The position numbers and the translations under genes were made by a program. From a virus (Duplodnaviria; Heunggongvirae; Uroviricota; Caudoviricetes), in the IMG/VR virus record IMGVR_UViG_3300027796_000011, positions 41,850 through 105,849 of that record: DNA of 64,000 bases; one strand, written 5' to 3'. A model generated the notes under the pieces. That model searched no databases. It saw nothing but the letters and a program-made list of their open reading frames with translations, and was not told the DNA's origin. Below are positions 20,471 to 39,940 of the stretch, one piece after another. Position 1 is the first letter of the stretch. Each line of letters begins with the position of its first letter.

Positions 20471-20572
20471 AGTCTGGTCTGGCGGGGCGGCGGCTAAGTT
20501 CCAGGTGGGGCAGCCTGCTTACCTGTTAGGTATTCTGTCTTAAATCCTTCCCCAAAAAATGCTACGTTGCAA

Positions 20573-20652
20573 GTTGCCGGTCCCCCCTACGTTGCGGGTT
20601 GCCGGTCCCTTTTCATTTCTTGACCTACGTTGCTTGTTGTCGTTCCCTTGGG
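20573..20652. repeat. three tandem CTACGTTGCnnGTTGCCGGTCCC direct repeats
   Basis: read directly; a second triple copy lies at 31490-31558. Confidence 0.8.
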
Positions 20653-20867
20653 TGCTTCCTGCCCGCTTCCTTGAGGTAGTGCTGATTGTTGTCAGGATGC
20701 CCTGTGCTGGACTTTCTTTTGATTCTTGGGGTTGGATACGGTCTGCTTGGTAGGCTGGCTTTAGAATGGCTTGTCTTTGGCTGGTTTTGAGTGTTCTTTG
20801 GCTGTTCGGGGTGGGTTCTTTTAGCCTAGTTCTGGTTGCTTTCCCACCCCGATTTTTTGGACTTCTG

Positions 20868-21101
20868 CTAGGCGTCGATGATCGTAAAAATATCCTCAAT
20901 CGGATCGCCTTCCATGTCAATGTCGGCACGACAATGCCTGCGGTTGCCCTCCCGCTCCATTGCTTTGAAAATCTCAAAATCCTCCCACGGAAGTACGCCT
21001 CCCCCAGAATCAGACATGGCATTGGGGGCTAACACGCTCCAAACGTCTTCAAACTGTTCACCTGAGTATCTGTCAACCCACTCCATTTGATATTTCGGCA
21101 T
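20868..21101 (-). CDS. small acidic protein, three-member paralog family (member 1)
   Basis: WVDRYSGEQFEDVW...LPWEDFEIFKAMEREG. Confidence 0.4.
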   Translation of the reverse strand: MPKYQMEWVDRYSGEQFEDVWSVLAPNAMSDSGGGVLPWEDFEIFKAMEREGNRRHCRADIDMEGDPIEDIFTIIDA

Positions 21102-21130
21102 GTGTTTCCTCCCCGATTTTTTGGGTTAGG

Positions 21131-21334
21131 CTAGTCTTTCAGAATGGTGTAAACATCCCCCTCGCACTCCCACTCTAAGAGGCCCTGAGACTTCATTTTT
21201 TCAAAAATCGCCACATCTCCTCCATGCATCGCGTGTTCATCCTCGCTGCATAACGTGTTAGGGGTAAGGTGGTCCCACAATCCCTCACAACGTCGGCCAG
21301 TAAAAACATCCATCCAACTGATCTTGTATAGCAT
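21131..21334 (-). CDS. small acidic protein, paralog family member 2
   Basis: WMDVFTGRRCEGLW...DVAIFEKMKSQG. Confidence 0.4.
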   Translation of the reverse strand: MLYKISWMDVFTGRRCEGLWDHLTPNTLCSEDEHAMHGGDVAIFEKMKSQGLLEWECEGDVYTILKD

Positions 21335-21363
21335 TTAGGATACCTCCCCGATTTTTGGTATGT

Positions 21364-21621: not shown

Positions 21622-21851
21622 GCATCCCCGAAGTCACCCACCCCCCGCACAATCCGGGTACTCTCCCCCCGACGTTCCATGTCTTTGAACACCTTGAAGG
21701 CGTCAAACCCCATTATACAGTCGCTCTTCAAGTCCCTGGCCTCAATATCTAAGGTAGTCCACTTCAAGGTGTAGATATTCGTCCCCGGAGTTGCCATGTA
21801 CGTGTATGTGTAGAGCATACCCCCCCTTTGTTTTTTTGAAGTTGATTTCAA
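21591..21851 (-). CDS. small acidic protein, paralog family member 3
   Basis: GFDAFKVFKDMERRG. Confidence 0.35.
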   Translation of the reverse strand: MKSTSKKQRGGMLYTYTYMATPGTNIYTLKWTTLDIEARDLKSDCIMGFDAFKVFKDMERRGESTRIVRGVGDFGDAWEDTYEISA

Positions 21852-22087
21852 TCCCAGGCGTACTTGATGAAAAAAGTCTTACCCGGTTCGATGTTCTTTG
21901 TCAAGCCCATGTTTTCCATTTCTTGGAAAGTATCCGCTTCCGCCTTGGTCATGATAACACTCTTGTACATACCCTTCCGAAAATAGATAGGTACAGACAG
22001 GTATCCCTGCTTTGCCTCGTTCCAAGTGATCTCAAGGGCCTTGCCATCCCCCATACCTTCGCTGGCGTACTGTATCTTGTAGGTCAT
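21848..22087 (-). CDS. hypothetical protein
   Basis: starts MTYKIQY directly after the conserved leader and promoter at 22142. Confidence 0.4.
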   Translation of the reverse strand: MTYKIQYASEGMGDGKALEITWNEAKQGYLSVPIYFRKGMYKSVIMTKAEADTFQEMENMGLTKNIEPGKTFFIKYAWD

Positions 22088-22123
22088 GTGCTTTCCCTCC
22101 CGCTCGTTTGTTGAGTACAGACT

Positions 22124-22297
22124 ACCGCTTTCGGGCAGGTTTGTCAAGGTTTTTTATGACCAGTTTGGCCGCTTGCAGACGCTTCTCGTCTTCCTTGGTA
22201 TTCAACCACGGGCACATGTTCAACGCCTTGACCATATTCTTGAGTGCCCAAGCGGGCTGGTTCCCCACTATGCTTCTCGCTTCCTGTAATGTCATGA
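22124..22297 (-). CDS. hypothetical small protein (57 aa, absent from the ORF track)
   Basis: GGGAGGG RBS then ATG ACA TTA CAG...; [21 protein letters not shown]... Confidence 0.3.
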
Positions 22298-22298: not shown

Positions 22299-22518
22299 CT
22301 AACCCTCCCGCCTCTTGTAACAAGGGCAATTCTCGTGCGGGGTTTCCGCTTCTACCATCACACCGTCAGCATGTGCCCCGGTGGGCGGAAGCGGGATGGT
22401 GTCCAGGTAAAAACATCGCCCCATAAAATGGTCATCCTCCGGGTATCCGTTGTGTGTCTCCCAGATCGTATTCCAGTTGCAATACTTACAGGTATGACAA
22501 GTCCCTTCCTTGAGTTGC
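22299..22518 (-). CDS. small Cys-rich protein
   Basis: conserved leader then MQLKEGTCHTCKYC. Confidence 0.35.
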
Positions 22519-22593
22519 ATAGGCTCCCCCTCATTCATTGAAGACATTATGTGCTTTTTCTTGGAAAATGTCAAGAGGTTAATCTGGTAAAAT

Positions 22594-23184: not shown

Positions 23185-23211
23185 GGTTCCTACCCCCCTC
23201 ATTTGTTTTGT

Positions 23212-23370
23212 CTATCTGTCCACAACGCCATTCACGTACTGGCGGGATGCCTTCAAAGACTTCGCAAGGACAGCCCCAAGTTCAGGGTGCTTGCGGACTG
23301 CCTGCCACCCATCACTGTCAACTAACTGGCGAATTTGTGCGGCCTGCTTTCTGGAAATAATGGCATTCAT
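23212..23370 (-). CDS. small hypothetical protein
   Basis: conserved leader then MNAIISRKQ. Confidence 0.35.
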   Translation of the reverse strand: MNAIISRKQAAQIRQLVDSDGWQAVRKHPELGAVLAKSLKASRQYVNGVVDR

Positions 23371-23443
23371 GTTCCTACCCCCCTCATTTGTTAGAAACAG
23401 TATGTGATTTTTCTTGGAAAATGTCAAGCGTATTTTTAATTTG

Positions 23444-23692
23444 CTATTTAATCCCTTCGCGGATTCGGTTGGCACACCACAACACACGATCAGGATGTAG
23501 CCCGCAACAATCTGAGCTAAGTTCTGGATTTACCACCATATCGTCAGCCACATCGGCAGCACCGGGAAGGACTCGCCCAAGTAGATGTAGATACCCGATT
23601 GCATTTGCCACCCTGTCCCCCCCATAAGCCGGGTGGCGTCCCTCGAAGATCGCTGCGGATTCTCTCAAGATGTCAACGGTAGTGCTGTTCAT
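23444..23692 (-). CDS. hypothetical protein
   Basis: 82 aa after the conserved leader. Confidence 0.35.
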   Translation of the reverse strand: MNSTTVDILRESAAIFEGRHPAYGGDRVANAIGYLHLLGRVLPGAADVADDMVVNPELSSDCCGLHPDRVLWCANRIREGIK

Positions 23693-23778
23693 GACTCCCC
23701 CTCATTCGTTGAAGACATTATGTGCTTTTTCTTGGAAAATGTCAAGCGTTATTTTTAACTTGCAACTTGATCCCCCCA

Positions 23779-24063
23779 TTACTTCCATGCGGCATACTTT
23801 GCCAGGAAGTCTAGACGTTCCTGTTCCTGCGTCAAGGCGTCTGTGAGTGGGATCAGGGACTCTTCTACCCGCGCAGCCCTCTCCCGGTCAAGAAAAAAAC
23901 CTACCGTCTGATCCGCATAGTCTGACCGCACATCGGTCACGCTTGTATAAGTGTACTGGCAATGCGGGCAGTAATCCCACCCCGCACCCTGGCCCCGGAG
24001 GTGCGAACAAAACTCACAAGCCGAAGACGCGCTTGAGATGGCAACTCTTTCCATTCTTTCCAT
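23779..24063 (-). CDS. hypothetical Cys-rich protein
   Basis: 94 aa; CEFCSH...CPHC. Confidence 0.35.
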   Translation of the reverse strand: MERMERVAISSASSACEFCSHLRGQGAGWDYCPHCQYTYTSVTDVRSDYADQTVGFFLDRERAARVEESLIPLTDALTQEQERLDFLAKYAAWK

Positions 24064-24142
24064 GTTCCTACCCCCCTCATTTGTTAGAAACAGTATAGAC
24101 CAAGAATCCCAGAAATGTCAAGTAGTTTTTTCGCAGTCAAAT

Positions 24143-24607: not shown

Positions 24608-24955
24608 AGTGTTTCCCTCCCGATTTTTTAATAAAGGGCATCCAAAGGAAGAACGATCTCATTTCCTACGCAACGCTCATTTTCTGCCGCTTCCTTGGAT
24701 GGAAAAACCCGGATTCGATTCAATACTCTTGTATAAGAGTTTTTGCTTCCAGGCTTGGCAACGTATCCACCTTCGCCACCTGTCCTTTTCAAAATGAATC
24801 CATTTGATTGCATGTGTGTTTCCCTCCCCGATTTGTTGAGTAGAGTATGCGCTAAAAACCTGGAAATGTCAAGAGGTTTTTTGAAGTTAATGGCGAAAAA
24901 AAAGCGGGAAGGCTTGCACCTTCCCGCACTAACTATTCAGGATTCTTTGAGATGT

Positions 24956-25897
24956 TTAGATTTCAATCAGCCGGATCAGTTCCGCCTTGTCCGGGGTTGT
25001 GATCGTCACGACAAGGCCGCTCGTGTGCCGGTATTCAGTGTCCCCGTAGGCGTCCTCCCCACTTTCCAGGTTCAGCCACCCCAGAGTCACCGTGGCCTTG
25101 TCACCCAAAGCCTTGCGGGCCTCCCGCAACTTCTCAATTTCGGCCAGTTCGGGCTTGTCGCGCTCGTTCCATCCCGCAGCCTCCCCCTCCCGGATTCCGG
25201 CGGGAAGTTTGGCGTCCGCCAGCACATTCACGACGTATTCCTGACGGGCCAGGGCCTTCCAATCAAAGCCCTCTTCAAGTCTGGCAAGCAGCAACTCCGA
25301 TCCATGCGCCTTGGCCCACTTCTCCAAAGCCGCCTCACCTTCTGCCGCTTCCTGCCGCTTGCGGGCCTCGTACTCGTCCCGGCTCTTTTCCATGTCCTGC
25401 CGCTTCCGCAACTGTTCGGCTAACTCCGCTTCACGCTTGGCTTTCTTGGCCTCTCCCGCCTCTACCAGTTGCGCTTTGATGCTGTCAAACTCTTCCTCAA
25501 CCCACCGATAGCGGGCCTTCTCAAACTCCAAGGCGGCGGAAAAACTCTCAAAAGGTGCGTCAAACCCCTCTTTCATGACATAAGAGGCAAGGGATGGGTC
25601 GTCCTTATCATGTCCAATTATGCCGATGATCGGGGAGCCGTGCTTGACAATGTACAGGCTGTCGGTGCTGATGGTCTGAGTGCCCTCCCGCTCCCGGCGG
25701 ATGGACACCCCACCCCCCACAACCTGAGTCTGCAAAAGGGCCAGGGTCAGGCTGCCGTCCCGGTCAACCTTAAAAAAGTCAACGTCTTCCGGGGAAATCT
25801 CGCCGGTCAAGGTCTGCATGGCCTTGCCGTCCAGCCCGCGCTTCAAAGCCTCACGCTGCCCAGCCTCAGTCAGCTTGTAAGTGATCGTCGCCTTCAT
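24956..25897 (-). CDS. hypothetical coiled-coil protein
   Basis: GGGAGGGAACGAAAA ATG; central E/K/R-rich helix. Confidence 0.4.
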   Translation of the reverse strand: MKATITYKLTEAGQREALKRGLDGKAMQTLTGEISPEDVDFFKVDRDGSLTLALLQTQVVGGGVSIRREREGTQTISTDSLYIVKHGSPIIGIIGHDKDDPSLASYVMKEGFDAPFESFSAALEFEKARYRWVEEEFDSIKAQLVEAGEAKKAKREAELAEQLRKRQDMEKSRDEYEARKRQEAAEGEAALEKWAKAHGSELLLARLEEGFDWKALARQEYVVNVLADAKLPAGIREGEAAGWNERDKPELAEIEKLREARKALGDKATVTLGWLNLESGEDAYGDTEYRHTSGLVVTITTPDKAELIRLIEI

Positions 25898-26037
25898 TTT
25901 TCGTTCCCTCCCGCCCGGCCCCTGCCGGGGTTGTTGTTTCATGTCCCGCGCCATCCCCAGACGGGGCGGTGTTCCCCATTCCGTTGAGTAGGAGTCTACT
26001 CAATCCTTCCAGGTTTGTCAAGCGTTTTCTTGTTTTT

Positions 26038-26137
26038 TGGTGGAGGCAGCCGGACTCGAACCGGCATCTACCGGCCCCTTACAGGGGTGCCCGCGTCCGG
26101 GCGTCCATTGTCGTTCTACCGATTAAACTATGCCCCC
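26038..26137 (-). ncRNA. tRNA-like element with non-canonical anticodon region
   Basis: 7-bp acceptor stem GGGGGCA/TGCCTCC; D arm TAGTTTAATCGGTAGAAC; perfect T arm GCCGGTTCGAGTCCGGC; 3' ACCA; the 46-nt middle forms GCCCG-GACG-CGGGC and CCCCT-GTA-AGGGG hairpins but no 5-bp/7-nt anticodon arm. Confidence 0.5.
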
Positions 26138-26181
26138 ATGAAGTAGAAGAATACTCAATCCTTCCAGGTTTGTCAAGAGAT

Positions 26182-26457
26182 TTAATAATAAACCCCTAAA
26201 GCCCGGCACGCCAGGAAAGAAAAATCTGTGTTGTGCCCGATGTGCTTGACGGCCATAGCCTGTAACAAGGCACCCTCAATCGTAGTGCATCCGCAGTTCG
26301 TGTCCCGCCCCTCCACATACGGGTGAAATATCCGGTGGTCCTCCTTGTCAAGATGCTCCACGATGCTGTACGGCCCGACCTCGTGGACTTCCACCACAAC
26401 CCCCCACACAAAGTCTATCGTATTACCGTAAATCTGTGTCGGTCTACGCACTTTCAT
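26182..26457 (-). CDS. hypothetical protein
   Basis: 91 aa ORF downstream of the promoter at 26172. Confidence 0.3.
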   Translation of the reverse strand: MKVRRPTQIYGNTIDFVWGVVVEVHEVGPYSIVEHLDKEDHRIFHPYVEGRDTNCGCTTIEGALLQAMAVKHIGHNTDFSFLACRALGVYY

Positions 26458-27003: not shown

Positions 27004-27615
27004 CTACATCCTGGCGAAGACTGCAACGTCTCCGTTATAAGTGCGTTCGGACCAATAGCTGTCAATAAACAGGTCACGGGCGTATGCGTCATAGTCGAAA
27101 TACGCTTGCAGATGTTCGGGGATGGAATCCAATTCCCCCATTTCGTCAAGCAGTTGCTCCGCAAATGCTGTTTCAGAATCAAAAGTGCCCTGGAAAGCAT
27201 CCTGAAAATCATCCAGGGTTGCATCCCCACCGTTGTCGTTTGCGTAAATGGCGTAAGCCTCCCCACCCTCTTCCAGAAGCCCATCCAGCTCGACAATCCT
27301 GTCCAGCGGGGTGTACTCCTCGACCAGCCCGTAAAATCCCTCTGAGTCATGAATGGCCCACTCCTCCGCAGACGGGAACGGGGAGGGCAAAGCACCGCCA
27401 CAATCCGGGCACCGCTCCCATTTGGCGTCCACATAAACGTCGCAGTCCTTGCAACGTCTACGCATGACATTGGGGTACTTGCTCATGGCAAGCAAGGCGT
27501 TAATCTGCGACTGAAGGCTTTCCGCACTCTCCCCGTCAACGTCGATCCATGTGCCCCGCGCTTCCCCGTTGTTGTAGTCGGCCAGGATGGACACATAGAT
27601 TTTTCTGTCGCTCAT
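27004..27615 (-). CDS. ardA: ArdA-family anti-restriction protein with inserted zinc ribbon
   Basis: IYVSILADYNNGEARGTWIDV, EWAIHDSEGFYG, IPEHLQAYFDYDAYARDLF align with Tn916 ArdA (VYIANLGKYNEGELVGAWF...EYAIHDYE...LQNYIDYQAYGRDL); highly acidic; CKDCD...CPDCGG insertion. Confidence 0.75.
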   Translation of the reverse strand: MSDRKIYVSILADYNNGEARGTWIDVDGESAESLQSQINALLAMSKYPNVMRRRCKDCDVYVDAKWERCPDCGGALPSPFPSAEEWAIHDSEGFYGLVEEYTPLDRIVELDGLLEEGGEAYAIYANDNGGDATLDDFQDAFQGTFDSETAFAEQLLDEMGELDSIPEHLQAYFDYDAYARDLFIDSYWSERTYNGDVAVFARM

Positions 27616-27703
27616 TTCGTTACCCTCCCGCTTGATTTGTTGAAGTCAGTATGTGCTATTTTCCAGGTTTTGTCAAGCACTTTTCCCATTGACTTCACTA
27701 TTT

Positions 27704-28015
27704 TCAGGAAGGCGACCAACCGTGCAGACAAAAGACCCTGAGAAGCGGGTTAACCCGCTGCAAAGTGCTGCGAATGTCGTTCGTTTTACTGTACCCGGAA
27801 CCCCCCAGACGGAAATGAAAAGCCGGATATTGGCTATGCTTACTGTAAATCTGATCGGGCAGCATTTCCTTAGACTTTTTGCCAAGGTCCGAATCCGACG
27901 GCCAGAGGATATTCAACCCCTCACCCTCGTCCAGGTACACGGCAAAGCGCGTGTTAGAAAGTTGAAGGATGTAAGCCCGCTTTGCGTCCTGAATTTGTTC
28001 CGCTTGTGCCTTCAT
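27704..28015 (-). CDS. hypothetical protein
   Basis: conserved leader then MKAQAEQIQ. Confidence 0.4.
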   Translation of the reverse strand: MKAQAEQIQDAKRAYILQLSNTRFAVYLDEGEGLNILWPSDSDLGKKSKEMLPDQIYSKHSQYPAFHFRLGGSGYSKTNDIRSTLQRVNPLLRVFCLHGWSPS

Positions 28016-28042
28016 GTGTGTTCCCTCCCGATTTGTTGAAGT

Positions 28043-28071
28043 CAGTATGTTCTTTTTCTGGGAAAATGTCA
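28043..28071 (-). promoter_or_regulatory. representative copy of the conserved promoter and leader cassette
   Basis: minus strand reads TTGACATTTTCCCAGAAAAAGAACATACT then GACTTCAACAAATCGGGAGGGAACACAC ATG; -35 hexamers of similar copies lie near 22142, 22569, 23422, 23740, 24116, 24866, 26016, 26172, 27671, 28836, 29387, 30577, 31066, 31313, 33046, 34317, 35268, 38878, 47155, 49124, 50692, 61099 and 62363. Confidence 0.6.
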
Positions 28072-28092
28072 AGCGGTTTTTCACATTGACTT

Positions 28093-28128
28093 CAAAAAAA
28101 CGGGGGGCTTTTACACCCCCCGCACATG
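28093..28128 (-). terminator. rho-independent terminator
   Basis: GCGGGGGGTGTAAAAGCCCCCCG hairpin + T7 on the minus strand. Confidence 0.5.
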
Positions 28129-28130: not shown

Positions 28131-28784
28131 TTAAATGTGGCAGTCAACCAGGGCCACAAGCTCATGCCCCTTGATCTCCTCCCAAAGCACCCGGAATTGG
28201 TCTTCCCACTCGCAAGGGCGTTTCTCCTCAGACACGCAAGCCCACCAGCCCATTTTGCCGCGCTCGTACCACACGCCGTCTTTCAGCACGGCAAACGTGG
28301 TTTCAACATCCCCGGCCTGATCCTTCCGGCAAATGTCCTTGCCGTCAAACATACCGCGCCACCGCCCGCCGATCTCCCACCAATCCCATTTGGCGTCGGG
28401 ATTCTCCCAATAGCCGTAGCGGCCCTTCTCCAGGTCGCGCCCATCGTATCCATACCAACCTTTGGCAAACTCCTCCAAAGTTTCGTACTGGTCCAGGTGC
28501 GGCACCTTAACCCTCTCGCTGTCTGCCGGGTACTCCTGGCGGGAAGACAGGTCTTTCTTGAAACGATCATCCCACCGATAGAACATACGCCCATCTTTGA
28601 GACGCACTTTCTCCACAGAGCCTTGCTGATACTCCGCGATGACGGACTCTTCCTTGTCGTGGAACTCTAAAAGTTCCTTCGGGAAGTCATCCTCCCCGCT
28701 GTACTCCTCAAACGGAGCCAGGGCCTTGGCGATGGACTCTTTTGTGCCGTCCTCAGTGACAACCAATACCGTAAAGTGTGACAT
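28131..28784 (-). CDS. hypothetical Trp-rich protein (WDWWEIGGRW motif)
   Basis: conserved leader then MSHFTVLVV; 217 aa. Confidence 0.4.
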   Translation of the reverse strand: MSHFTVLVVTEDGTKESIAKALAPFEEYSGEDDFPKELLEFHDKEESVIAEYQQGSVEKVRLKDGRMFYRWDDRFKKDLSSRQEYPADSERVKVPHLDQYETLEEFAKGWYGYDGRDLEKGRYGYWENPDAKWDWWEIGGRWRGMFDGKDICRKDQAGDVETTFAVLKDGVWYERGKMGWWACVSEEKRPCEWEDQFRVLWEEIKGHELVALVDCHI

Positions 28785-29087
28785 GTGTGTTCCCTCCCGA
28801 TTTGTTGAAGTCAGTATGTTCTTTTTCTGGGAAAATGTCAAGCACTATTTTGAAGTTAGTGTGAGAATTTCTGTCAGGGTCGCATGGATGGAGAACAGAC
28901 GTTCTTCCAAGCCCTCCCGCTCCGGGGCGGGGAGGCAACCCACTACCGCCCGGATATCCGCCAAATGACTTCTCATCTGGCAAGCGGATGACATGAGGGC
29001 CGAAAGCGTCTGAGCGTCCATGTCATTTTCCCGCCTCAATTCCTTTCAGAATGAGCCACCCTACGCATATTGCCCATAACACGAGGA

Positions 29088-29330
29088 CTACCATGCGCGG
29101 GCCTCCCGGTCACTGTCCTGCGGCAAATCCACCCCCATCAAAACATGATGGGAAGGAACGTCATGGGACACCTTGTAGTGCCTGCCGTACACGGGCCAGA
29201 AGCCGTAGTCGTCACAAAACTCCCGGCAATACTCCGGCAGGGACGCCTGGATTTCCTCCAGGCTGTCATACTGCATCAAAGTGGACCAGCTACCATCCGC
29301 CCGCTTTTCCTGAAAGCTGTATTCGTACAT
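29088..29330 (-). CDS. hypothetical protein
   Basis: conserved leader then MYEYSFQEK. Confidence 0.35.
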   Translation of the reverse strand: MYEYSFQEKRADGSWSTLMQYDSLEEIQASLPEYCREFCDDYGFWPVYGRHYKVSHDVPSHHVLMGVDLPQDSDREARAW

Positions 29331-29388
29331 GGTTCTTTTCCTCCCGCTCATTTGTTAGGTGCATCCTACCCGGTTTTTCCAGGTTTTG

Positions 29389-29742
29389 TCAAGAGGTTTT
29401 ATCCCCTAAATTAGACAAAACTTCGCGCAGTTGGGCAAAAGCCACTTTGCACAGGTCAAAGTGCGTCCCTAGGGACGCAAATGCGTGTTCGATGTACCAC
29501 GTATCGGAGCAGTCCGCACAAACCACATGCAGCGTTTCATACAATTCCCGGCACTGTGCATACCATGCCGCTGCCGCAGCCACACGACGAAGGCGGGCGA
29601 TCTCCAGGGAGGCATCCCCGTTGGTATCAATAGCCCCCCGAAGCCACTCACGTAATTCATGAACTTCCGCATTTTTGACATCCAAAGCCGTCCGAAGAAA
29701 CTCAACCTCCTGACCACAGCCGCACGACTCGCACATTGACAT
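29389..29742 (-). CDS. hypothetical Cys-rich protein
   Basis: MSMCESCGCG...; 117 aa. Confidence 0.3.
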   Translation of the reverse strand: MSMCESCGCGQEVEFLRTALDVKNAEVHELREWLRGAIDTNGDASLEIARLRRVAAAAAWYAQCRELYETLHVVCADCSDTWYIEHAFASLGTHFDLCKVAFAQLREVLSNLGDKTS

Positions 29743-30273: not shown

Positions 30274-30525
30274 TTAGGCAATGATTTCAGACACCCATTC
30301 AGGAATCCAACCCCACACCCCATCATCCTCAAGAATATCAAAATAGTCATGCCGCACAACATACGATACAGTAACAACAGTTCCCAGATAAGCAAACATG
30401 TCAGGGACGATGCTGTCCACCCACATGGGGTTGCACAGGGCACCCGCAAAATCAATCCCTGTGGACGCACTTGCCAACTCTTCCAGCGTCTTCAGACGCA
30501 CTTTCATCCCAGGCTTAATTTCCAT
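30274..30525 (-). CDS. N-domain-only member of the HRDIRLIR family
   Basis: MEIKPGMKVRLKTLEEL, YLGTVVTVS, WGWIPEWV; lacks the C-terminal HRD motif. Confidence 0.45.
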   Translation of the reverse strand: MEIKPGMKVRLKTLEELASASTGIDFAGALCNPMWVDSIVPDMFAYLGTVVTVSYVVRHDYFDILEDDGVWGWIPEWVSEIIA

Positions 30526-30601
30526 CGCTCCTCCCGCTCAATTTGTTGAGTAGATTATGGACGTTTTTCCAGGTTTTGTCAAGAGGTTTTTCCCATTGAC
30601 T

Positions 30602-30817: not shown

Positions 30818-31442
30818 TTTAGTCGTCCCCTCCAAGCAAGTCTAGACGCTCTTCAAGCGTGCGAATATAGCACGCCAAGTCTTCCCTGTCCATTTCAAGT
30901 TCTTCTATCCGGGCTTCCAGCTTGGCTATTTCGGAGTCTTTGAGGTCAAGCTCTACAGCAACGTCTTCCCAAAGCACCCACTCCCCATGCTTGTCAGCCT
31001 TCATCGTGTATCTGTCCATATGCCCCCCGATTTGTTGAGTAGAGTATGTGCTTTTTCTGGGAAAATGTCAAGCACTATTTTTCCAGTAATTTACCGCGCA
31101 ATCCTCCAAGTTCGCTAGGTACTCACTGTGCCTGTCGGCTGCGGCGTCACTCCAACCATCCCGCCATGCCACACGGTCCACGCTATCAATAGTATAAGGG
31201 CTAGCAGACTCTTCCCGTCCCTCCAGAAAGGCACTGTACCCCAGGTCGTATGCTTCCATGTGGTCCCTCCCGCTCATTTGTTAGGTGCATCCTACCCGAA
31301 AAATCTAGGGTTTGTCAAGAGGTTTTTTGAAGTCAATGGGAAAAAGCGGGGCGGGTGGGAAAACAGCCGAAGCCCCCAAAGCATCCTATAAGACACTATG
31401 AGGGCTTCTGGCTCAACTACCCGGCTATCTACCCGGCTTACT

Positions 31443-31558
31443 TCATGGGTCACTTAGGGGGTCACTTAGGGGGTCACTTGATGGGTCTACGTTGTAAGTC
31501 GTCGGTCCCCTACGTTGAACCTTGCCGTTCCCTACGTTGCAACCCGCCGTTCCCTCGA
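31443..31558. repeat. intergenic repeat cluster: 3x GGTCACTTAGGG followed by 3x CTACGTTGnAAnnnGnCGnTCCC
   Basis: read directly; same repeat family as 20573-20652. Confidence 0.8.
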
Positions 31559-32768: not shown

Positions 32769-32987
32769 CTAGTGACAAATACTATAACCCCGGCCAATCA
32801 TGCACTGCTGGCACAAATCCATCTGCGTGAACATGTTCCCCAAGGCACCCTGACCCGCTTGGGCCATACAAAAACTGTAATCCGCATTGAACTGCTGCGT
32901 GTTAAGTCCGGGCTTGCACCACTTACCAGCACAACCAGCCATCCCCAAAACAAGAACCAACAAAGTCACACAACCAAAACGCTTCAT
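32769..32987 (-). CDS. small Cys-rich secreted lipoprotein
   Basis: signal peptide MKRFGCVTLLVLVLGMAGC (lipobox LGMAGC). Confidence 0.45.
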   Translation of the reverse strand: MKRFGCVTLLVLVLGMAGCAGKWCKPGLNTQQFNADYSFCMAQAGQGALGNMFTQMDLCQQCMIGRGYSICH

Positions 32988-33522
32988 TCTCTTGTCCTCC
33001 CTAACCTTGATTTGTTAGGGACAGTATGCACACTTTTCTAGGATTTGTCAAGAGGTTTTTCAAGAGATTCAAGTTCCTCAAATAACTCAAAAAGTGCGTT
33101 CCACATCAGATCAGTATGCAAGGCACTAGCACGTTCGTAGGGGTCGGCGTGCATAGTCAGCAGTTCATCCTGCCCATCGAACGTATTCCTGATGTCGCAG
33201 ATGCCCTGATACATGGTATGCCAGACATTCTGGCAGAACTCCGAATAGTCGTAGTTCTTCTTGGCTCTCAAAGCCAGAGAAAGAATCCTTGACAATCGCT
33301 CATAGTTAAAGACAAGAGCCACTAGGCGTCCCCCCCGCTCACTTCCACAGTCTCTCTGTAAAGGGCTTTCAGATTGTCACGAAGATGCACCGACCTTCCC
33401 ACCACATCGGCCAAGATGTTCAGGGTCTTTAGCACGTTGCCCTTGTTGAAGTAATAATGTGCAGCATTGGCGTCCTTAATCAAAGACTGAAACTCTTTCG
33501 TAACCGTTTCCACAATGACCTC

Positions 33523-34260
33523 CTAGATTGTGACCCACCAGCCCGTTCTGCCGGGGATGGAAAGGCCGATATACGTTGTATCCTTAATGGTCCTCTTAAC
33601 ATACCTGTGCCAGTGCCCAAAAAGACTCAAAGCGGGCCGGTACTCCTCAATAAGAGACTGCAAAGCCTTTGTAGATGGATCGTTCCTATCCTTCTGTCGC
33701 ATCTCCATCATGGTATCCACCATGCACTCCGGGCAAGTATGACTGATAAGTATGTCATACGTCTGATGCTTTACTGCATCTAAGTCCTCTTGAGAAATGA
33801 TCTCCTCCTTCGAGAACCAATCCCACCCATCAACACGCTGACGGAAATCAACAGAACTAGCTCCCCCCATAAAAAGGGCGCGACGGCCATCAGGAAGTTC
33901 ATAGTAGCTCCCACGGGGCATGTAATAGATGTTTTCTGCTACCTCTATGGGAACCCTCCCCCCCGCCTTATCCACCAGTTCTCTAAGCATGTGATGTTGG
34001 CAATGATTGCCGTCACAGAACAGAATCTTGGTCTTTTGAGGTTTGATAGCATGGAGATACGTCAGTACATCTCCCCGCTCCAACACCCCACTATTCTTCT
34101 CGAAGTTAGTACGGAGTACCCTCCCCCCGTCCCTGGAACCCTGCACCAGAGGCCAGTATCCCATATCCCCACACACAATGCAGATTTCGGGCTGCTTCTT
34201 GGCGAGGATGCTGTTTAACTCCCCGAACTCCCCATGCTGATCCCCACACACCAGTATCAT
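33523..34260 (-). CDS. calcineurin-like metallophosphoesterase
   Basis: ILVCGDQHGE (GDxHG), CIVCGDMGYW (GDxxD), CDGNHCQHH (GNHE-like), GHWH. Confidence 0.65.
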   Translation of the reverse strand: MILVCGDQHGEFGELNSILAKKQPEICIVCGDMGYWPLVQGSRDGGRVLRTNFEKNSGVLERGDVLTYLHAIKPQKTKILFCDGNHCQHHMLRELVDKAGGRVPIEVAENIYYMPRGSYYELPDGRRALFMGGASSVDFRQRVDGWDWFSKEEIISQEDLDAVKHQTYDILISHTCPECMVDTMMEMRQKDRNDPSTKALQSLIEEYRPALSLFGHWHRYVKRTIKDTTYIGLSIPGRTGWWVTI

Positions 34261-34927
34261 CTGGAATCCTCCCCGCTCGATTTGTTACAAACATCTTACC
34301 CAATTTTTCTAGGCATTGTCAAGAGGAATTTCGCAGTCAACTTCAAAATTTTCGGGGTCGGTTAACTCTTCCCGCAGAAGTTCTCTCACTTTAGTCCTTT
34401 CTGCCTGATGGTACATCTGCCGATCCTTCCCGCTCTTGGGGCCGCAACACCGGCACTTCCATCTGTACCAACTCATGGCGTCCAGCCCCAAACGCTTATC
34501 AACCTTATCCGTCTTCGCAGACGACTGCATACTGCCCCCCCCTAGTTAGTCAGGAAGAGGGAGGCAAACTCCTCCCAGAACTCATCCTCTTCCAGTTCGT
34601 ACCTACGTTGCTTCTTGCCGTTCCCATGTACCTTCGTCAGATACCTGGAGTCCTTGGGCATTGCATCCCGCCGTGCTTCTCTGTAAGCCCTGCGGGTTGC
34701 CTCCCCCACATCAATCTTCTGGCACTTCATATCGCTCCCCCTCCAACTCGTTACGGTATCTCTCAATACACCCATCTAGAGTGGTATCCCCATGCTTCTT
34801 CCAATACTCATACAAAAGCAAGTTCAACTCTTTTGACATCTTCTCAACTGCGTCAGGAAAAGTTGCACGGCTTCGGATACGCATTACAAGCCTCAAACAC
34901 TTATGCAAAAACAAGTCAACATCTGGA

Positions 34928-35212
34928 TCAATCATCGTCGTTATCCTCATCGTTGCTGTAGTCGCGGGAGGGACGCACCTTCCCCTGGTAAGAACCGTTT
35001 CCAGAATAAATGTTGGTGTCTCCATTGCTGGTCTTAGACATCCTTCCCAGATACTTGCCATCCGTAGACCACACCGTGGAGGTGGTTCCGTGGTCCTTAA
35101 CAACCGCCTTGTAATTTCCGCTGTTGTCGTAGATACGATACGTCTTTGTCTCCGCACCCGCAAAAGCGGGCAGGGTCACACACAAGGTCATTAACAAAAA
35201 AAGTGTCTTCAT
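34928..35212 (-). CDS. secreted small protein
   Basis: signal peptide MKTLFLLMTLCVTLPAFAGA after the conserved leader and promoter. Confidence 0.45.
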   Translation of the reverse strand: MKTLFLLMTLCVTLPAFAGAETKTYRIYDNSGNYKAVVKDHGTTSTVWSTDGKYLGRMSKTSNGDTNIYSGNGSYQGKVRPSRDYSNDEDNDDD

Positions 35213-35372
35213 CTCAAGCTCCTTTCGGCAGTTGGTATGAAGACACTATAGGTACTTATCTAGGTTTTGTCAAGACTTATTTTTTAGAAATTGCCTGTAC
35301 TCCCACTCCTCCATCAAAAGCCCATACGCAGCCACCACAAAAGACACCAGCAACAAAGGCCATGCAACATAG

Positions 35373-35717: not shown

Positions 35718-35969
35718 CGTTGCCCCCTTCTGGCTTTTCTGGCCCACCATGATTAGGACACGCAAGCCCAGGTATGTACCCGTTGTAGCGAAAGTCAGCG
35801 CGGAACACTTCGCCCGTGTATGGGTCTCTGTACTCCTTGCACGGCGGGCGACGGCCGTATGCCGGTTTGTCGCAAAACCCAGCGGGGCAACCAGATGTCC
35901 ACGCCGGAACAGAGCATTTTCCGACGCCGTTGGTAAGTTCATGGTGGTGCTTTTGTGTTCTTGACATGC

Positions 35970-36155
35970 TCATTCCCACTCCTTTTTCATGGGCCGCACA
36001 GAGTAGGCGATGCCGTTTACAACGATGGCCCCGGCACCAACACAGCGAATCAAGGATTTTTTGACGTTTACATTACCAAACGATATGCCCAGAATAAATC
36101 CCACAAGCAGCGCCACGAGAGTCCAGCCGTTCATGACTCTACCCCTTTCGGCCAC
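35970..36155 (-). CDS. small single-TM membrane protein (paralog pair, holin-like)
   Basis: MNGWTLVALLVGFILGI. Confidence 0.35.
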   Translation of the reverse strand: MAERGRVMNGWTLVALLVGFILGISFGNVNVKKSLIRCVGAGAIVVNGIAYSVRPMKKEWE

Positions 36156-36343
36156 ACGCTGTAGGTGAGGCCGCCATGGGCCATCTTGTTGCGAATCCTT
36201 GCGAGTTCTGCCTCTATTTCTCCCAGTTCTGCCAACGCGGCCTTGATGTTGTTGCTCTTCACTGGACCAGTATTCACAGTCGTCCTAGCCAAAACACCCG
36301 GGACGAAGCCCACAAGCAGTGCCACGAGAGTCCATCCACTCAT
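36131..36343 (-). CDS. small single-TM membrane protein (paralog of 35970..36155)
   Basis: MSGWTLVALLVGFVPGV. Confidence 0.35.
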   Translation of the reverse strand: MSGWTLVALLVGFVPGVLARTTVNTGPVKSNNIKAALAELGEIEAELARIRNKMAHGGLTYSVWPKGVES

Positions 36344-38137
36344 CCCTCCACCCTCCCCTTGACTTCCTTGGTCTGCCTGTAGTCTTCAATGCGCGACACC
36401 ATGAGGTACACCAACCCAAACGCCCTCTCTTCTGCGTACGCCTTTGCTTCCTCAAGCTCCTGGAAGCGGCCCGTGAGGGTGCTGTTACCGGCTTTAACCT
36501 GATACCCCCCGTTCGCCCACTCGATGTACACGTTGAAAGCAAGGCCGACAAGTCGAGAGCACCCGTATTGATGTTCAGTCCACTGCAACTTAGACATTCT
36601 CAATCCTCCCCTTGACTTCCTGCGCCACCGGGATGGGCAGGGCGGCGCGCGTACGAATGGCCTTCATTATCTCTTTTATGGTGGTCCATGGCACAAAGAC
36701 TTTGCGCAGATAGGTGTACGGCTCCCCTTCAGCATCCTCTGCGGCCGTTTCCTCTATAAAATAAAACTCCCCCATGTAGGCGGCCTTCGTTTCTGCTGAC
36801 GGTGTAATCGCCTCCCGCAGCCTCTCCACGCTATTCACCGCCTCGACGCAACGGTCGGCGTCCTCCTCGCGCTGGAAGAAAGCGACATCTTTGCCATCTT
36901 CATCCACGACATTATGACGGCAGTCTTCCTCAACATACCAATCAGACATCTTCCACCCCCTCCACCTCATTTTCCATGTCATAGTTGAGTGCTTCTATTT
37001 TCCTGCAAATGAGATTGATTTGGCGTTTGATATCTTGTTTCTTTTGTATACACTGAACCAACATCACCGCTAGCTCCCGCATCTGGTCGCCTTTAGCCTT
37101 CATCTTCCACCTCGATTTCCCATGTGATTTCAATCGCCTCACCAATCCGGCCACAGCCCTTCAAAGAGTCAGCATATTCTCGTGATGGGAAAACTGTTCC
37201 ACCAGGAAACGCCATTGATGTCCTGTGGATTGATGGAGCCGGTGGGTAGATGTTGATGTACCCTGTTTTCTTCTCCACCCGCATCCGCTTCGGCGGTTCT
37301 GCGGGGGTGATACAAACACCGGGCCAGTAGAGGTCGGGGGTTAAGTCCTCAGAGTGGAATCTCCCGTTGATGGCCCAAGAGTATGCCTGTTGATCTTTGA
37401 ACGGGGCGACACAGCACCTAAGGCAGGTGTCGTAAATTTCTTTGACCACAACCTTGCCAAACCGCAGGCTCACCAATTCATCCCCCACGCGCACCTTGGA
37501 CAAATCGCTTTTGACTTCCATCACATCCTCCTTATCATTTTCCCGTTACCGGGAATATGGTCACGCTTGGGGCCAGGACCGTTCCAGCCTCCACACACCG
37601 TGGGCCGGAGATTTAGTATGCGGCTACCGTATGCTATCGGACGGCCTGCCGTGGTGTGCTTGCACCCTCTCGGTAGTCCTGGCCCCAAGCGCGGCCCGGA
37701 TGGTTCCGGGCCTGATGCTACGCCATAGCCTTAATGCGCTGCTCTTCCTGCTCACACAGCACGTCATAGGAAGCATCTTCGACTTCAGGATACAGGGAGT
37801 AATCATATCCATCCCAATTATCCACCCCACCCCCCTCCAGCATCATTAGCTTGATCTCGCACTTACGCAACTTAAAGTACCTGTCCTTGCTAATAGTCAC
37901 TTCCCCTTCCATGTTAACCCTCCCGCTGACTGCGTTTGACGTTCCAAGGAGTTTGCTGCCGCATCTTGGACAGTGCCCTAGTCAAGTCCAGGCTGGCCCG
38001 CTTCAAAGCTCCTCCCTCTTTGGAGGCATACGGACTATCATTCACACCATGCACGGCAAGATACTCCATGTACTTAGTCAAAAAACGCTTTGCCTCTTCC
38101 GCAGCTTCAACAATATTCTTATACAGCACGGGGCCTC

Positions 38138-38821
38138 CTATGCAGCGGCTTCGTCTGCCGTAAAATTACCAGGGATAACCCCGTACCACTTACGGGCTTC
38201 CTCGATGTCATCGACGCTGAAAGCGCGGGACAGGAAGCGGGCCGCAATCTGCTCATCATTGTTGGTCATCTCAAGATACTTGTTAAAAGTCTCAACAATA
38301 GTCTGATACCTGGAAGCCTTACTCTTGCACTCGTAAAAGTCCCCCCACAGCCCGTCCGTTGCCTCCCGCATGGCCTTCACAGCATCCGCGTGTTCCTTAC
38401 GAGACTTTTCGTTCTTATTCTTAATCTCACGATTCTTGTCCAACACGCTCTTCTGATTCATAACTTCAGAGTAATCGCACAGGGTGACTTCTTCGATACT
38501 GTACGAGATGTACGGAGATGCGTACATGTAATCCGACCCGACACTGTACTCATAGTCAGCATGGGAAGGCTTGAGTGACGCAAACACCTGTGCCTCTTCC
38601 ATTGTCTTGAAAACGGCGTTGAACTCCTGATTGCCGTATTCCTTCTGGCCCCGAACTTTGTAGTAAGACTTCCGGGGAAGGTCCACCTCTTCAACCTCTT
38701 GAATGATTGGGACGGTGACTTTGACCACCCCGCGCTCCATCAATTCATAGTCCAGATACTTTTGAAGATCGTCTTCCGTAAGACCCGCCCGCTCCTGTTC
38801 AGTCATGTCCCAATAACGCAT
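38138..38821 (-). CDS. hypothetical protein
   Basis: conserved leader then MRYWDMTEQE; 228 aa. Confidence 0.4.
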   Translation of the reverse strand: MRYWDMTEQERAGLTEDDLQKYLDYELMERGVVKVTVPIIQEVEEVDLPRKSYYKVRGQKEYGNQEFNAVFKTMEEAQVFASLKPSHADYEYSVGSDYMYASPYISYSIEEVTLCDYSEVMNQKSVLDKNREIKNKNEKSRKEHADAVKAMREATDGLWGDFYECKSKASRYQTIVETFNKYLEMTNNDEQIAARFLSRAFSVDDIEEARKWYGVIPGNFTADEAAA

Positions 38822-39940
38822 TTTGATTTCCCTCCCGCTCGATTTGTTAGAAACAGTATGTGCTTTTTCTGGGAAAATGTCAAGCACTTTTTCACATTGA
38901 CTTCACAAATTTGGGTCTACCGACTTGGCTATGCAATAATCCCTAGCAGTTCCGTAAGGATCGTCCTTCCAGGTAGCAGCCATCAGGTTGTAAAGCCTCT
39001 CAACCACTACGAAAACTGCGGGGTGGTCTTCGACTGCGAACGCACCATCATGAGGCCCAAGTTTGAAACACAGTTCCTCTAACATGATAGCCAGAGAAGA
39101 GATGTCATCCTCGCTACTCGCATCCACAACGTCTTGGTAATCTCTTTGATCTAGCATGTAGCCCCTCCCGCCCACTCAACCTTCCCTATGGAAAGGGAAG
39201 GTTCCAGTTGGATGTGCAACATGAAATGCCCGGAACACGCAGCGCACTGCAAAGTTTTCACTACGTTGAGATCGTCCGGGTCCAAAACTACAAGCCTCTC
39301 ACCCTCTGCGGACTCTTCATTAGCAGCATCTACCAACGTAGTAGCACCACAGTTCGGGCATTTCACATTGAATTTCACTGCGTAGCCTTCCCGCTCTCGC
39401 GCTCCATCTTCAGAAGCTCAGGCATGAACGGAGTCTTGTACCAGTATACATCCCCCCGCTCATCTGTGAGCATCGTGGGCACATACTTGTCTTCTCCGTC
39501 CTTGGCAGAAAATTCATCCAGAAGGTTCAGTACAAACAACTCCAGAATCCCTTCAGCGAGTGCTTTGAGTACGTTCAGAATGGGCATGAACTGCCGGGGA
39601 GACTTCGGCAGTTTAGCCATTGCCAGAAGGACACCCCCATACCCAATCAACGCGCTGTGCATCTCAAAGAACTGCTGTTCGTGCTTGTGCGCTTTACGCA
39701 GTTTCGTACACATGTCAGGAAAGATTCCCATCGTAGCCATGAACTCCTCAAATCGGGAGGGCACACTACTAGAGTCCTCAAAAGAAACACCAAGCATCTT
39801 AAACCCTTCCAACATGGTAGACACCAAATCCTCATTGCTCAAAACAACTTTAGAACCAATCATCGTCCCCTCCGTCTCGGTTGTCCATACAGTGTATCAA
39901 GGTTGCTAACACCAGCACGAAACACAGAACTAGTCCCATA

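Follow-up and report, generated by a model that had tools for sequence, protein, structure and literature searches.

A short regulatory cassette, comprising a TTGACA-type promoter and a leader with a strong Shine-Dalgarno sequence, recurs in a 64,000-nt stretch of the genome (~106 kb) of an uncultured phage; this stretch, analyzed here at its full length, is referred to as the window. Genes in the window are directed leftward at 1-9.9 kb, rightward at 9.9-16.2 kb, and leftward again from ~16.7 to 64 kb, and the phage-type genes recognized among them encode a class II-like ribonucleotide reductase, a C5 cytosine methylase, PhoH, ThyX, MazG, RtcB, dTMP kinase, and a sigma-like protein. The gene set was produced by a simple caller based on open reading frames (ORFs), Shine-Dalgarno sequences, and codon scores, with a few manual additions; gene counts are approximate.

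The window is 100% identical to parts of JGI Ga0209800_10000227, JGI Ga0066602_10000549, and Logan SRR10466930_5266. Contig Ga0209800_10000227 (105,969 bp) stops at a point corresponding to position 35603, whereas the window runs on past it; because this end lies inside the window, the assemblies are circular permutations of a ~106 kb genome, which is either circularly permuted or terminally redundant. Among cultured phages, megablast found no DNA match to the 20.5-39 kb region, and protein matches were all below 35% identity. Protein-based scans of IMG/VR revealed no relatives, and the exact cassette patterns had no match there; a single cassette compared with cultured phages by blastn gave only chance-level matches (E = 0.3). 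Loci in relatives were located through a four-sequence protein alignment. The nearest relative, L004 (Logan SRR27457923), encodes a large ATPase 52% identical to that of the window and shares the syntenic core genes from dTMP kinase to ThyX; past ThyX synteny is lost, and the small genes of L004 match window genes 10-30 kb away or none. Relatives were binned with metagenome-assembled genomes of Victivallales and Desulfovibrio, which is a weak pointer to the host.

Identification of the promoter family

The window was scanned for TTGAC(A/T) followed, after 16-18 nt, by a hexamer having A at its second and T at its sixth position and matching TATAAT in at least 4/6 positions, with 200 dinucleotide shuffles as the control. 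This yielded 33 sites (28 on the minus and 5 on the plus strand) compared with a shuffle mean of 3.19 (sd 1.87, maximum 9). A -10 element was present behind 31 of the 77 TTGACA hexamers of the window (40%), against ~4.9% expected. An nhmmer profile built from 15 copies returned 22 matches at E<1e-3, and a promoter-tool scan of 20-39.5 kb found 20 minus-strand sites with at least 10/12 matches, compared with one on the plus strand.

The curated set contains 28 promoters, each of which is intergenic or lies at a gene 3' end and is oriented with the downstream gene (28/28); 18 are located within 22-39 kb. Copies are named here by the position of their -35 hexamer. The full cassette, with the short AACAAAT-GGGAGG leader, is present in 19 of the 28, the remainder having other leaders, longer leaders, or none. 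Four sites left out of curation (7390, 9419, 26930, and 37511 on the plus strand) look like chance occurrences, and the fifth, 42515, located within the large ATPase gene, shows the extra features of the family and is a possible internal promoter. At 22147, 6825, and 5299 lie weaker variants, whose -10 is poorer or whose spacing deviates.

A sequence-only reading of the same DNA had proposed at least 25 copies of a promoter and 5'-untranslated-region (5' UTR) unit, a number that holds for the promoter part (28 curated copies and the weaker variants) but not for the full short leader (19 copies). The outlying copies it listed all exist, on the minus strand (-35 at 47160, 49129, 50697, 61104, and 62368) and on the plus strand (-35 at 15335, 9992, 11339, and 12085), the positions it gave being the low end of the same hexamers. 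Its consensus formula describes a unit that does recur; however, the spacer was written as 16 nt, whereas it actually measures 17 nt, or 18 nt in the TAGGAT subclass, and the literal formula, with 7 nt from TTGACA to GAAAAA, gave a single match because this spacing is one base short.

Promoter anatomy

The motif, its orientation and spacing, and the additional conserved positions described here, together with the unstructured nature of the leaders, are established by sequence statistics. All 28 curated copies carry the TTGACA -35 hexamer, which served as the anchor; the spacer is 16 nt in five copies, 17 nt in 17, and 18 nt in six, and the -10 hexamers are CATACT, CATAAT, TAGGAT, TATAAT, and similar. 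Conservation extends well beyond these elements, to positions that played no part in selecting the copies. C occupies -36 in 27/28 copies. Upstream of it, A is found at -45 to -43 in 19-20 of the 28 copies, and only A or T (W) at -42 to -40 in all. Within the spacer, positions -29 and -28 are exclusively A or T (28/28), C is found at -26 in 18 and at -25 in 21 copies, and a purine is invariant at -22 (28/28); positions -21 to -18 form an A-tract, or a T-tract in five copies, with W at -18 in 27/28. G is present at -15 in 20/28 copies, and -12 is T in 16 and C in 12. As a control, C-36 and the WW pair were each found in 30 of the 31 TTGACA sites followed by a -10 element, compared with 13/46 and 14/46, respectively, of those lacking one. 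The A-tract at -45 to -40 and the near-invariant C-36, like the second, dyad motif found beside many cassettes, had not been noticed in the sequence-only reading.

The type-A spacer, TTTTCC(C/A)AGAAAA, forms a near-palindrome of 13 bp and gives a match on either strand; its dyad TTTTC-N3-GAAAA is present in seven type-A copies, and such A/T-only dyads would be weak hairpins. This spacer motif was never found in the window away from promoters. The CCNRG core of the spacer (R, purine) occurs both ways round, as AAAACCTGGAAAA and TTTCCAGGTTTTT. The interchangeability of A- and T-tracts and the occurrence of CCNRG in both orientations suggest that DNA shape, rather than base-specific contacts, is conserved. 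Both the sequence and the conformation of the spacer around -18 have been reported to be sensed by sigma-70 (PMC3130263).

In L004, promoters of the same style are found (cTTGACA-AAATCTAAAAATCGTG-TATGAT, cTTGACA-AATTTCTAAAAAAGTG-TATATT, and CTTGACTTTTTCAAGAAAA; in short form, cTTGACA-AAATCTAAAAAT..TGTATGAT), one of them at the syntenic place past the AAA ATPase gene. The more distant relatives L006 and L011 have repeated promoter cassettes of their own with different spacers, and no such promoters were found in the 22-kb locus examined in L014.

Strong primary-sigma promoters that depend on the -35 typically combine an A-tract at -46 to -38 (the proximal UP-element subsite), a perfect -35 hexamer, and a 17-nt spacer. 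A-11 and T-7 in the -10 element and a YA start (Y, pyrimidine) 7 nt downstream are equally typical of them. The earlier designation of the unit as a strong host sigma-A promoter thus stands as regards its anatomy, which is of the primary (group 1) sigma type; the term sigma-A presumes a Firmicute host, and nothing here shows one. The repeat is a well-defined family of ~30 probable early promoters of the primary-sigma type.

Leader and translation initiation region

Pyrimidines prevail at -3 to -1 (Y at -1 in 26/28 copies), and the seventh base past the -10 element, the predicted +1, is A in 23/28, followed by ACAAAT. The predicted transcript would therefore start with AACAAAU. In 21 copies the distance from the -10 element to the start codon is 23-35 nt, and with a start at the conserved A the transcribed leader would comprise just 17-29 nt up to the ATG. 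The strong Shine-Dalgarno sequence reported earlier behind the promoter and short leader is present, as GGGAGG, 5-9 nt before the ATG.

A structured leader RNA was considered and rejected: the leaders with 30 coding nucleotides fold no better than shuffled sequences (mean z = +0.41), and an Rfam scan of the window detected no family other than tRNA. The suggestion that the conserved leader CAACAAAT is a regulatory RNA element gives way to a simpler description, in which this block coincides with the predicted start site. The conserved leader is the predicted start site joined to an unstructured, A-rich translation initiation region with a strong Shine-Dalgarno sequence. Promoter-less genes mostly lack AACAAAT, and several of those with free intergenic space show an AAAAAT(C/G)GGGAGG context (20868, 21131, 24143, and, on the plus strand, 15015).

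Operon organization and terminators

Between 20.5 and 39 kb, 18 promoters serve 49 protein genes and one tRNA-like gene (~2.7 genes per promoter), and 21 of the 49 protein genes overlap or lie within 15 nt of the upstream gene. Ten genes adjoin without gaps from 37.5 to 35.4 kb, and the segment 35.3-38.8 kb, interrupted by a gap of 193 nt (37525-37717), would be essentially a single long operon transcribed from promoter 38883. Terminator-like sites are not enriched in 20-39.5 kb (22 compared with 19.8 in shuffles), and a terminator ahead of every cassette was therefore rejected. Only two or three sites in this region are real terminators; the only two convincing ones, 24904-24927 and 28100-28123, are each located directly upstream of a cassette (Table 1).

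Two claims of the sequence-only reading fail on this layout. The cassette does not precede most genes of the region, as 17 of the 49 protein genes and the tRNA-like gene have a promoter of their own, and a separate transcription unit for each gene is not supported in view of the ratio of genes to promoters, the many overlapping start/stop junctions, and the small number of convincing terminators. The layout is one of short operons with additive promoters; with terminators this scarce, a promoter would in most cases supplement transcription arriving from upstream instead of insulating a single gene.

Table 1. Promoter copies, leaders, terminators, and dyad motifs in the window (positions in nt; promoter copies are named in the text by their -35 hexamer).
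Feature	Position	Strand	Details
Divergent pair, leftward member	9870..9948	-	TTGACA-16-TATATT
Divergent pair, rightward member	9982..10099	+	77-nt leader with dyad motif, to PhoH-like gene
Cassette variant	11329..11396	+	TTGACA-17-TAGAAT; leader CAAGAAATTTGGGGAGGG
Full cassette	12075..12150	+	core 93% identical to minus-strand 31318 copy; dyad TGAAGTTGACTTCA just upstream
Full cassette	15325..15395	+	53 nt identical to minus-strand 24872 copy
Weak variant	22085..22157	-	TTGACA-17-TAGTCT; standard leader CTCAACAAACGAGCGGGAGGG
Full cassette	22518..22584	-	-10 CATAAT
Leader and ribosome-binding module alone	23186..23207	-	AACAAATGAGGGGGGTAGGAAC; without promoter, before gene 22594-23184
Full cassette	23368..23437	-	-10 CATACT
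Full cassette	23690..23755	-	-10 CATAAT; core identical to 22574 copy
Full cassette	24061..24131	-	18-nt spacer, -10 TATACT; 36 nt from -10 through ATG identical to 23427, core differs
Full cassette	24811..24882	-	53 nt identical to plus-strand 15335 copy; terminator 24904-24927 upstream
Terminator	24904..24927	-	hairpin GCGGGAAGGTGCAAGCCTTCCCGC, then T8
Twin promoter	25895..26031	-	spacer as in 26176 promoter, -10 TAGACT; 95-nt G+C-rich leader, ATG 25897
tRNA-like gene, 97 nt	26041..26137	-	encoded CCA; anticodon region expanded by ~25 nt
Promoter only	26138..26186	-	TTGACA-17-TATTCT; no Shine-Dalgarno leader; 10 nt upstream of tRNA-like gene
Full cassette	27613..27686	-	drives ArdA anti-restriction gene 27004-27615
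Full cassette	28013..28082	-	intrinsic terminator 28100-28123 immediately upstream
Terminator	28100..28123	-	hairpin GCGGGGGGTGTAAAAGCCCCCCGT, then T7
Full cassette	28782..28851	-	core and leader (57 nt) identical to 28072 copy; flanks and coding sequence unrelated
Full cassette	29328..29402	-	18-nt spacer, -10 TAGGAT
Full cassette	30523..30592	-	spacer AAACCTGGAAAAACGTC, -10 CATAAT
Full cassette	31017..31081	-	core identical to 38883 copy; leader of CTACTCAACAAAT type
Full cassette	31257..31328	-	18-nt T-tract spacer, -10 TAGGAT; drives RMF-like 63-aa gene 31068-31259
Full cassette	32985..33061	-	-10 CATACT, ATG 32987
Full cassette	34258..34332	-	18-nt spacer, -10 TAAGAT; metallophosphoesterase gene 33523-34260; dyad TGAAGTTGACTGCG just upstream
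Promoter	35210..35283	-	TTGACA-17-TATAGT; different leader (AAGGAG Shine-Dalgarno), ATG 35212
Full cassette	38819..38893	-	-35 at 38883, 17-nt spacer TTTTCCCAGAAAAAGCA, -10 CATACT, ATG 38821; heads operon from 38821 to ~35373
Promoter	47100..47170	-	TTGACA-16-TATATT; behind AAA ATPase gene; L004 promoter at syntenic place (L004 8041)
Full cassette	49068..49139	-	18-nt spacer, -10 TAGGAT
Full cassette	50632..50707	-	16-nt spacer, -10 TAATAT
Promoter	61011..61114	-	TTGACA-17-TATTAT; 62-nt leader with dyad motif
Promoter	62294..62378	-	TTGACA-17-TATAAT (12/12); 43-nt leader with dyad motif
Dyad 14-mers (also written out as TGAAGTTAACTTCA)	4654, 6209, 9958, 10055, 12062, 15813, 19899, 21837, 24132, 32733, 34332, 41819, 46156, 50760, 51471, 59248, 61034, 62320		starts in plus-strand coordinates

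Probable transcription by the host RNA polymerase

Three recognizable products of the cassette-rich region are consistent with early expression, in agreement with the earlier view of an early or host-takeover region: ArdA (Pfam, 2.3e-34), encoded behind cassette 27676; a protein of the T7 gp5.9 (RecBCD inhibitor) family, encoded at 37718-37912 on the minus strand within the operon behind 38883; and the RMF-like protein (Pfam, 3.2e-7) behind cassette 31318. The RMF-like protein is 38% identical to what we take to be the E. coli RMF sequence; its gene hints at a proteobacterial host, although it proves nothing. We infer that proteins acting against restriction and against RecBCD would be of use only when the host polymerase makes them at once.

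Very probably, the host RNA polymerase with its primary sigma factor (sigma-70/sigma-A type) uses the cassettes as early promoters. From the sequence we predict early use by this polymerase, the precise start, and the functions of A-tract and spacer as follows. The A-tract at -45 to -40 would act like the promoter-proximal half of an UP element, in front of the invariant cTTGACA -35 and a patterned spacer of 17-18 nt (WW at -29/-28, CC at -26/-25, a purine at -22, and an A- or T-tract at -21 to -18). The -10 element would be deliberately sub-consensus (CATACT, TAGGAT, CATAAT) while retaining the essential A-11 and T-7, and transcription would start at a YA step 7 nt past it, beginning directly in AACAAAU in two-thirds of the copies. 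Promoter, start site, and ribosome-binding site would form one compact expression module. Such modules would stand at intervals of ~2-3 genes within the hyperplastic block, which is made up of small ORFan, anti-defence, and host-takeover genes, and at wider intervals among the nucleotide-metabolism genes. In a secondary and less certain role, the cassettes may double as short recombination homologies through which genes are shuffled, in the manner of the promoter-early stem-loop (PeSL) cassettes of T4-type phages.

In favor of promoter use by the host polymerase are the excess of sites over shuffles, the conservation of positions outside the selection pattern, the uniform placement ahead of genes, the unstructured leaders, the sensing of the spacer by sigma-70, and the retention of the promoter style in L004. 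Two features of the layout lend independent support to promoter function. A promoter core located 10 nt before the tRNA-like gene, with no Shine-Dalgarno leader, shows the promoter module to be independent of the leader; its spacer is identical to that of the neighboring promoter 26021. The divergent pair 9938/9992 sits exactly at the switch between leftward and rightward gene orientation.

Several observations weigh against transcription by the host polymerase early in infection. C replaces T at -12 in 12/28 copies and several -10 hexamers match in 4/6 positions only, so that these hexamers alone would be weak. The spacer patterning exceeds what an ordinary promoter needs, and the near-palindrome could be an operator for a regulatory protein. 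The exact cassette is lineage-specific, given the other spacers in L006 and L011 and the absence of such promoters from the L014 locus. Promoter activity, start site, and early timing are all predictions, and the phage encodes a sigma-like protein of its own.

If that protein (55750-56571), named as a possible reader in the sequence-only reading, were to read the cassettes, they would be middle or late promoters instead of early ones served by the host. The gene is present, with matches to Sigma70_r4 (1.1e-4) and to the sigma70-ECF model TIGR02937 (2e-9), and the -10 hexamers depart from TATAAT in a family-specific manner (CATACT, TAGGAT). The protein, however, matches ECF/FliA-type models only, and below their cut-offs, whereas the cassette combines a perfect group-1 -35 hexamer with a spacing of 17±1, A-11/T-7, an UP-like A-tract, and G-15 in 20/28 copies. 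Group 3 and group 4 sigma factors use -35/-10 motifs other than TTGACA/TATAAT, and we know of no ECF/FliA-class sigma factor that reads TTGACA-17-TATAAT. Moreover, the sigma gene itself lies within the leftward transcription block fed by the cassette promoters, and functions such as those of ArdA and the gp5.9-like protein are useful only if the proteins are made before any phage protein exists. We regard a phage-sigma promoter family as very unlikely.

Still less credible, and close to negligible, is that the cassettes are a non-functional dispersed repeat of a selfish kind, similar to miniature inverted-repeat transposable elements, which resembles promoters by chance. They are indeed short and numerous, with some identical copies on both strands; however, terminal inverted repeats and target duplications are lacking, the copies are strictly co-oriented with the gene that follows and stand at a fixed distance from its start codon. 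Conservation peaks at the positions recognized by sigma-70 and is variable elsewhere, and the promoter position is kept at the syntenic site in L004 despite diverged DNA. Transcription by the host polymerase with its primary sigma factor remains the preferred explanation.

Modularity and possible recombination

Among the 19 full cassettes, cores have a pairwise identity of 0.70 and leaders one of 0.68, compared with a background of 0.50-0.57 in the upstream 120 nt and the first 60 coding nucleotides. The similarity ends exactly at the ATG and fades within ~30 nt upstream of the -35. Copies 28072 and 28841 share 57 identical nucleotides beside unrelated genes, and 24872 (-) and 15335 (+) share 53 on opposite strands, again beside unrelated genes. 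Cores and leaders are also found in different combinations: 23427 and 24121 have the same 36 nt from the -10 through the ATG and different cores, and 31071 and 38883 have an identical core and different leaders. Co-duplication of a cassette together with its gene was rejected as an origin of the copies, there being few small paralogue families and most cassette-driven genes being unrelated.

The 53-nt pair (24830-24882 on the minus strand and 15332-15384 on the plus strand) constitutes an inverted repeat with copies 9.5 kb apart. Together with 31318 (-) and 12085 (+), whose cores are 93% identical, these inverted pairs are potential substrates for inversion of the intervening segment. Paralogous small proteins are represented by a family of six (~30-47% identity over the aligned parts), five encoded at 11394-14196 (+) and one at 30274-30525 (-), and by a second family at 20868, 21131, and 21591.

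These patterns raise the possibility that the cassettes are primarily mobile or recombinogenic units of the PeSL type, between which recombination excises, inserts, and swaps the flanked small genes; their promoter activity would make an inserted gene immediately expressible, so that this proposal extends transcription by the host polymerase rather than opposes it. The junctions in the chimeric core/leader combinations lie near the -10, the place to which PeSL crossovers have been mapped (PMC2839356), and in the published PeSL anatomy an AT-rich region and a sigma-70 promoter, with a stem-loop inside the promoter or next to it, are followed by a Shine-Dalgarno sequence and an ATG (PMC4122927). 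The proposal is further favored by the confinement of similarity to core and leader, by identical copies beside unrelated genes and on opposite strands, by the leader-only remnant at 23186-23207, and by the concentration of cassettes where gene order is not conserved with L004, the flanking core genes being syntenic. On the other hand, the closest relative in the collections searched is only 52% identical at the marker protein, and the three other public copies of the genome are 100% identical to the window. The lack of an exact cassette match in IMG/VR and the chance-level blastn result with cultured phages provide no sign of spread between lineages, and chimeric patterns can also be produced by ordinary divergence and gene conversion. 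Recombination as the primary role is thus possible, although we consider it doubtful.

A second motif as a candidate operator

A second, dyad motif, read in the gene sense as a T-run, TGAARTYRACTTCA, and an A-run, has 25 matches with at most 3 mismatches in the window, compared with 3.06 expected; 18 copies are intergenic and oriented with the genes (Table 1). They are located directly 5' of promoters, 5' of the Shine-Dalgarno sequence in promoter-less genes, or within long leaders. At least 11 curated promoter copies have the motif or half of it upstream, and half-sites of the form TGAAGTCAATG(G/T)G, in either orientation, lie directly upstream of the A-tract in seven promoters. Conservation is far higher in the right half of the dyad than in the left, and on the sense strand 11/18 copies have a mismatch, mostly A:C, at pair 5:10; these unequal halves and mismatches make a hairpin in the sense RNA unlikely. 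A role of the dyad, or of its T/A runs, as a terminator was rejected, as in both reading directions the U-run comes before the stem and the A-run after it.

Each of the relatives L004, L006, and L011 has a dyad of its own in the same kinds of place: TTGAAC-CAA-GTTCAAAAAA in L004, including the syntenic site past the large ATPase gene, AGTGAACACGTGTTCACT in L011, and AGTGCAAACGTTTGCACT in L006. At E<=1e-3, neither a helix-turn-helix nor another classical DNA-binding domain was recognized among 87 small ORFs. Our best guess is that the dyad is an operator for an unrecognized protein.

In a broader version of this proposal, the spacer pattern W4-CCNRG-W4/5 and the dyad TGAARTYRACTTCA would together be operators through which one or more phage or host proteins switch the whole promoter family off or on, for example in early shut-off or in stoperator-like silencing. 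Consistent with this are the near-palindromic type-A spacer and the two orientations of the CCNRG element, the retention of TTTTTCAAGAAAA in the L004 spacers despite ~50% protein divergence, the enrichment of the dyad at oriented intergenic sites, and the presence of a distinct dyad at the same places in each relative, as for a co-evolving pair of protein and site. The spacer motif, however, has no existence apart from promoters, and the interchangeable A- and T-tracts at -21 to -18 and -29 to -26 point to shape. Similarly, the distance from dyad to -35 varies within and between phages, and the dyad also precedes Shine-Dalgarno sequences that have no promoter. The small ORFs contain no classical DNA-binding domain, although the ORFans could hide one. 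On balance, a switch of the entire family through both elements appears unlikely.

We also tentatively advance, as an unlikely extension, that the promoter/leader cassette and the dyad constitute a clade-wide two-part system outside the T4-like phages, in which gene-shuffling cassettes of the PeSL kind would be combined with a dispersed operator of ~20 copies co-evolving with a phage protein. If this were true, the dyad set would be a stoperator-like or global early/late switch.

Other features of the window

The tRNA-like gene gives an Rfam tRNA score of 48.6 bits and is missed by ARAGORN. Its acceptor, D, and T arms are intact, and the anticodon region is replaced by ~38 nt forming two hairpins, one of which has a UGUAA loop with a possible GUA anticodon; there is also a weak likeness (16 bits) to the acceptor part of permuted tmRNA. 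Small ORFs of the window further encode an RF-1 domain protein and a phage endonuclease I-like protein.

A 23-nt repeat, GGGACCGGCAACTTGCAACGTAG, has seven matches compared with none expected, all on the minus strand, in three near-tandem copies at each of the intergenic sites 20562-20647 and 31487-31554 and a single copy at 34603-34625, and looks like iterons or protein-binding arrays. Short non-coding repeat arrays are found at 20328-20448, 31445-31480, and 15700-16300, with the units CATATGCTT (phased at 16 nt), CTAAGTGACCCC (three copies), ACTAGGCTTTAT (three copies), and TTACCACTTTGAC (two copies). They are located around the point where transcription converges (~16.2-16.7 kb) and where the leftward early block ends, and may mark an origin or packaging region.

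The large Walker-A ATPase (PF27249 family; 41830-45180, minus strand) comprises 1116 aa, compared with ~680 aa in relatives. The extra ~455 aa start with ...NVFTA/CFPPEQ and end with ...FIAHN/CLDEVNF, which are intein hallmarks (Cys1, His-Asn, Cys+1). L004 has an intein in its AAA ATPase instead.

Significance and comparison with known systems

For an uncultured phage, the cassette offers a transcription map that marks the likely immediate-early ORFans, which are candidate anti-defence and host-takeover genes (ArdA and the gp5.9-like and RMF-like proteins already belong to the marked set), and the compact and uniform module of promoter, start, and ribosome-binding site is a possible part for synthetic biology. 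The findings extend the architecture of a regulatory cassette in a hyperplastic region from T4-type phages to an unrelated metagenomic lineage, and support cassettes as a general way to plug new genes into early expression. The cassette family reveals no new mechanism, and its interest is modest, save for the dyad motif and the possible cassette-mediated shuffling beyond T4-type phages.

Large families of very strong sigma-70 promoters with conservation beyond the hexamers are familiar from the early promoters of T4 and T5 (for example, PN25). In these, the region upstream is A-rich, the spacer contains an A/T-tract, and the initial transcribed region is conserved, and their consensus differs from that of the cassette. 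As for the dyad, the stoperators of cluster A mycobacteriophages are short, asymmetric, and oriented and are present in ~20-30 intergenic copies, and in this they resemble it. The start-associated sequences (SAS) of cluster K mycobacteriophages, located immediately 5' of start codons and including the ribosome-binding site, resemble the dyad with its A-run. Unlike in the phages having stoperators or SAS, no repressor or integrase was recognized in the window, and the motif sequences are unrelated.

The SPO1 host-takeover module is described as a set of mostly small early genes in short operons with promoters and ribosome-binding sites of the highly expressed type (PMC6873191), and the host polymerase is stated there to read the early genes before phage sigma factors take over (PMC6873191, PMC13401047). 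The cassette-rich region is similar in being a cluster of mostly small, predicted early genes in short operons with promoters and ribosome-binding sites of this type; the module of SPO1, a member of the Herelleviridae with a Bacillus host, is part of the terminal redundancy of its genome. By PHROGs, the subset of proteins scanned, which took in a minority of the small ORFs, showed no homology to those of SPO1 genes 37-60. To our knowledge, no spacer and leader uniformity as extreme as that found here has been described for SPO1.

The PeSL promoter of RB49 and phi1 is a near-consensus TTGACA-N17-TATAAT (Arbiol et al., 2010, PMC2839356; Comeau et al., 2014, PMC4122927), and PeSL cassettes, which cluster in the hyperplastic ORFan regions of T4-type phages, show crossovers between the -10 and the ATG (PMC2839356, PMC4122927). 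Similarly, the cassette described here consists of an AT-rich stretch and a sigma-70 promoter followed by the Shine-Dalgarno sequence and ATG of a small ORFan, is present in many copies, some of them chimeric, and is concentrated in a hyperplastic region (18/28 within 22-39 kb, a block of small genes that mostly lack family matches). It differs from PeSL in that the stem-loop or terminator part is weak or absent in most copies, and leader and start site vary far less. The phage, moreover, is not T4-like as far as the window shows, its recognized genes not being T4 core genes; the cassette would therefore work like PeSL without being a member of that lineage-defined set. With the cassette family, a new phage follows a strategy already familiar from other phages; PeSL is the closest known kind, and the SPO1 host-takeover module is the other close analogue.

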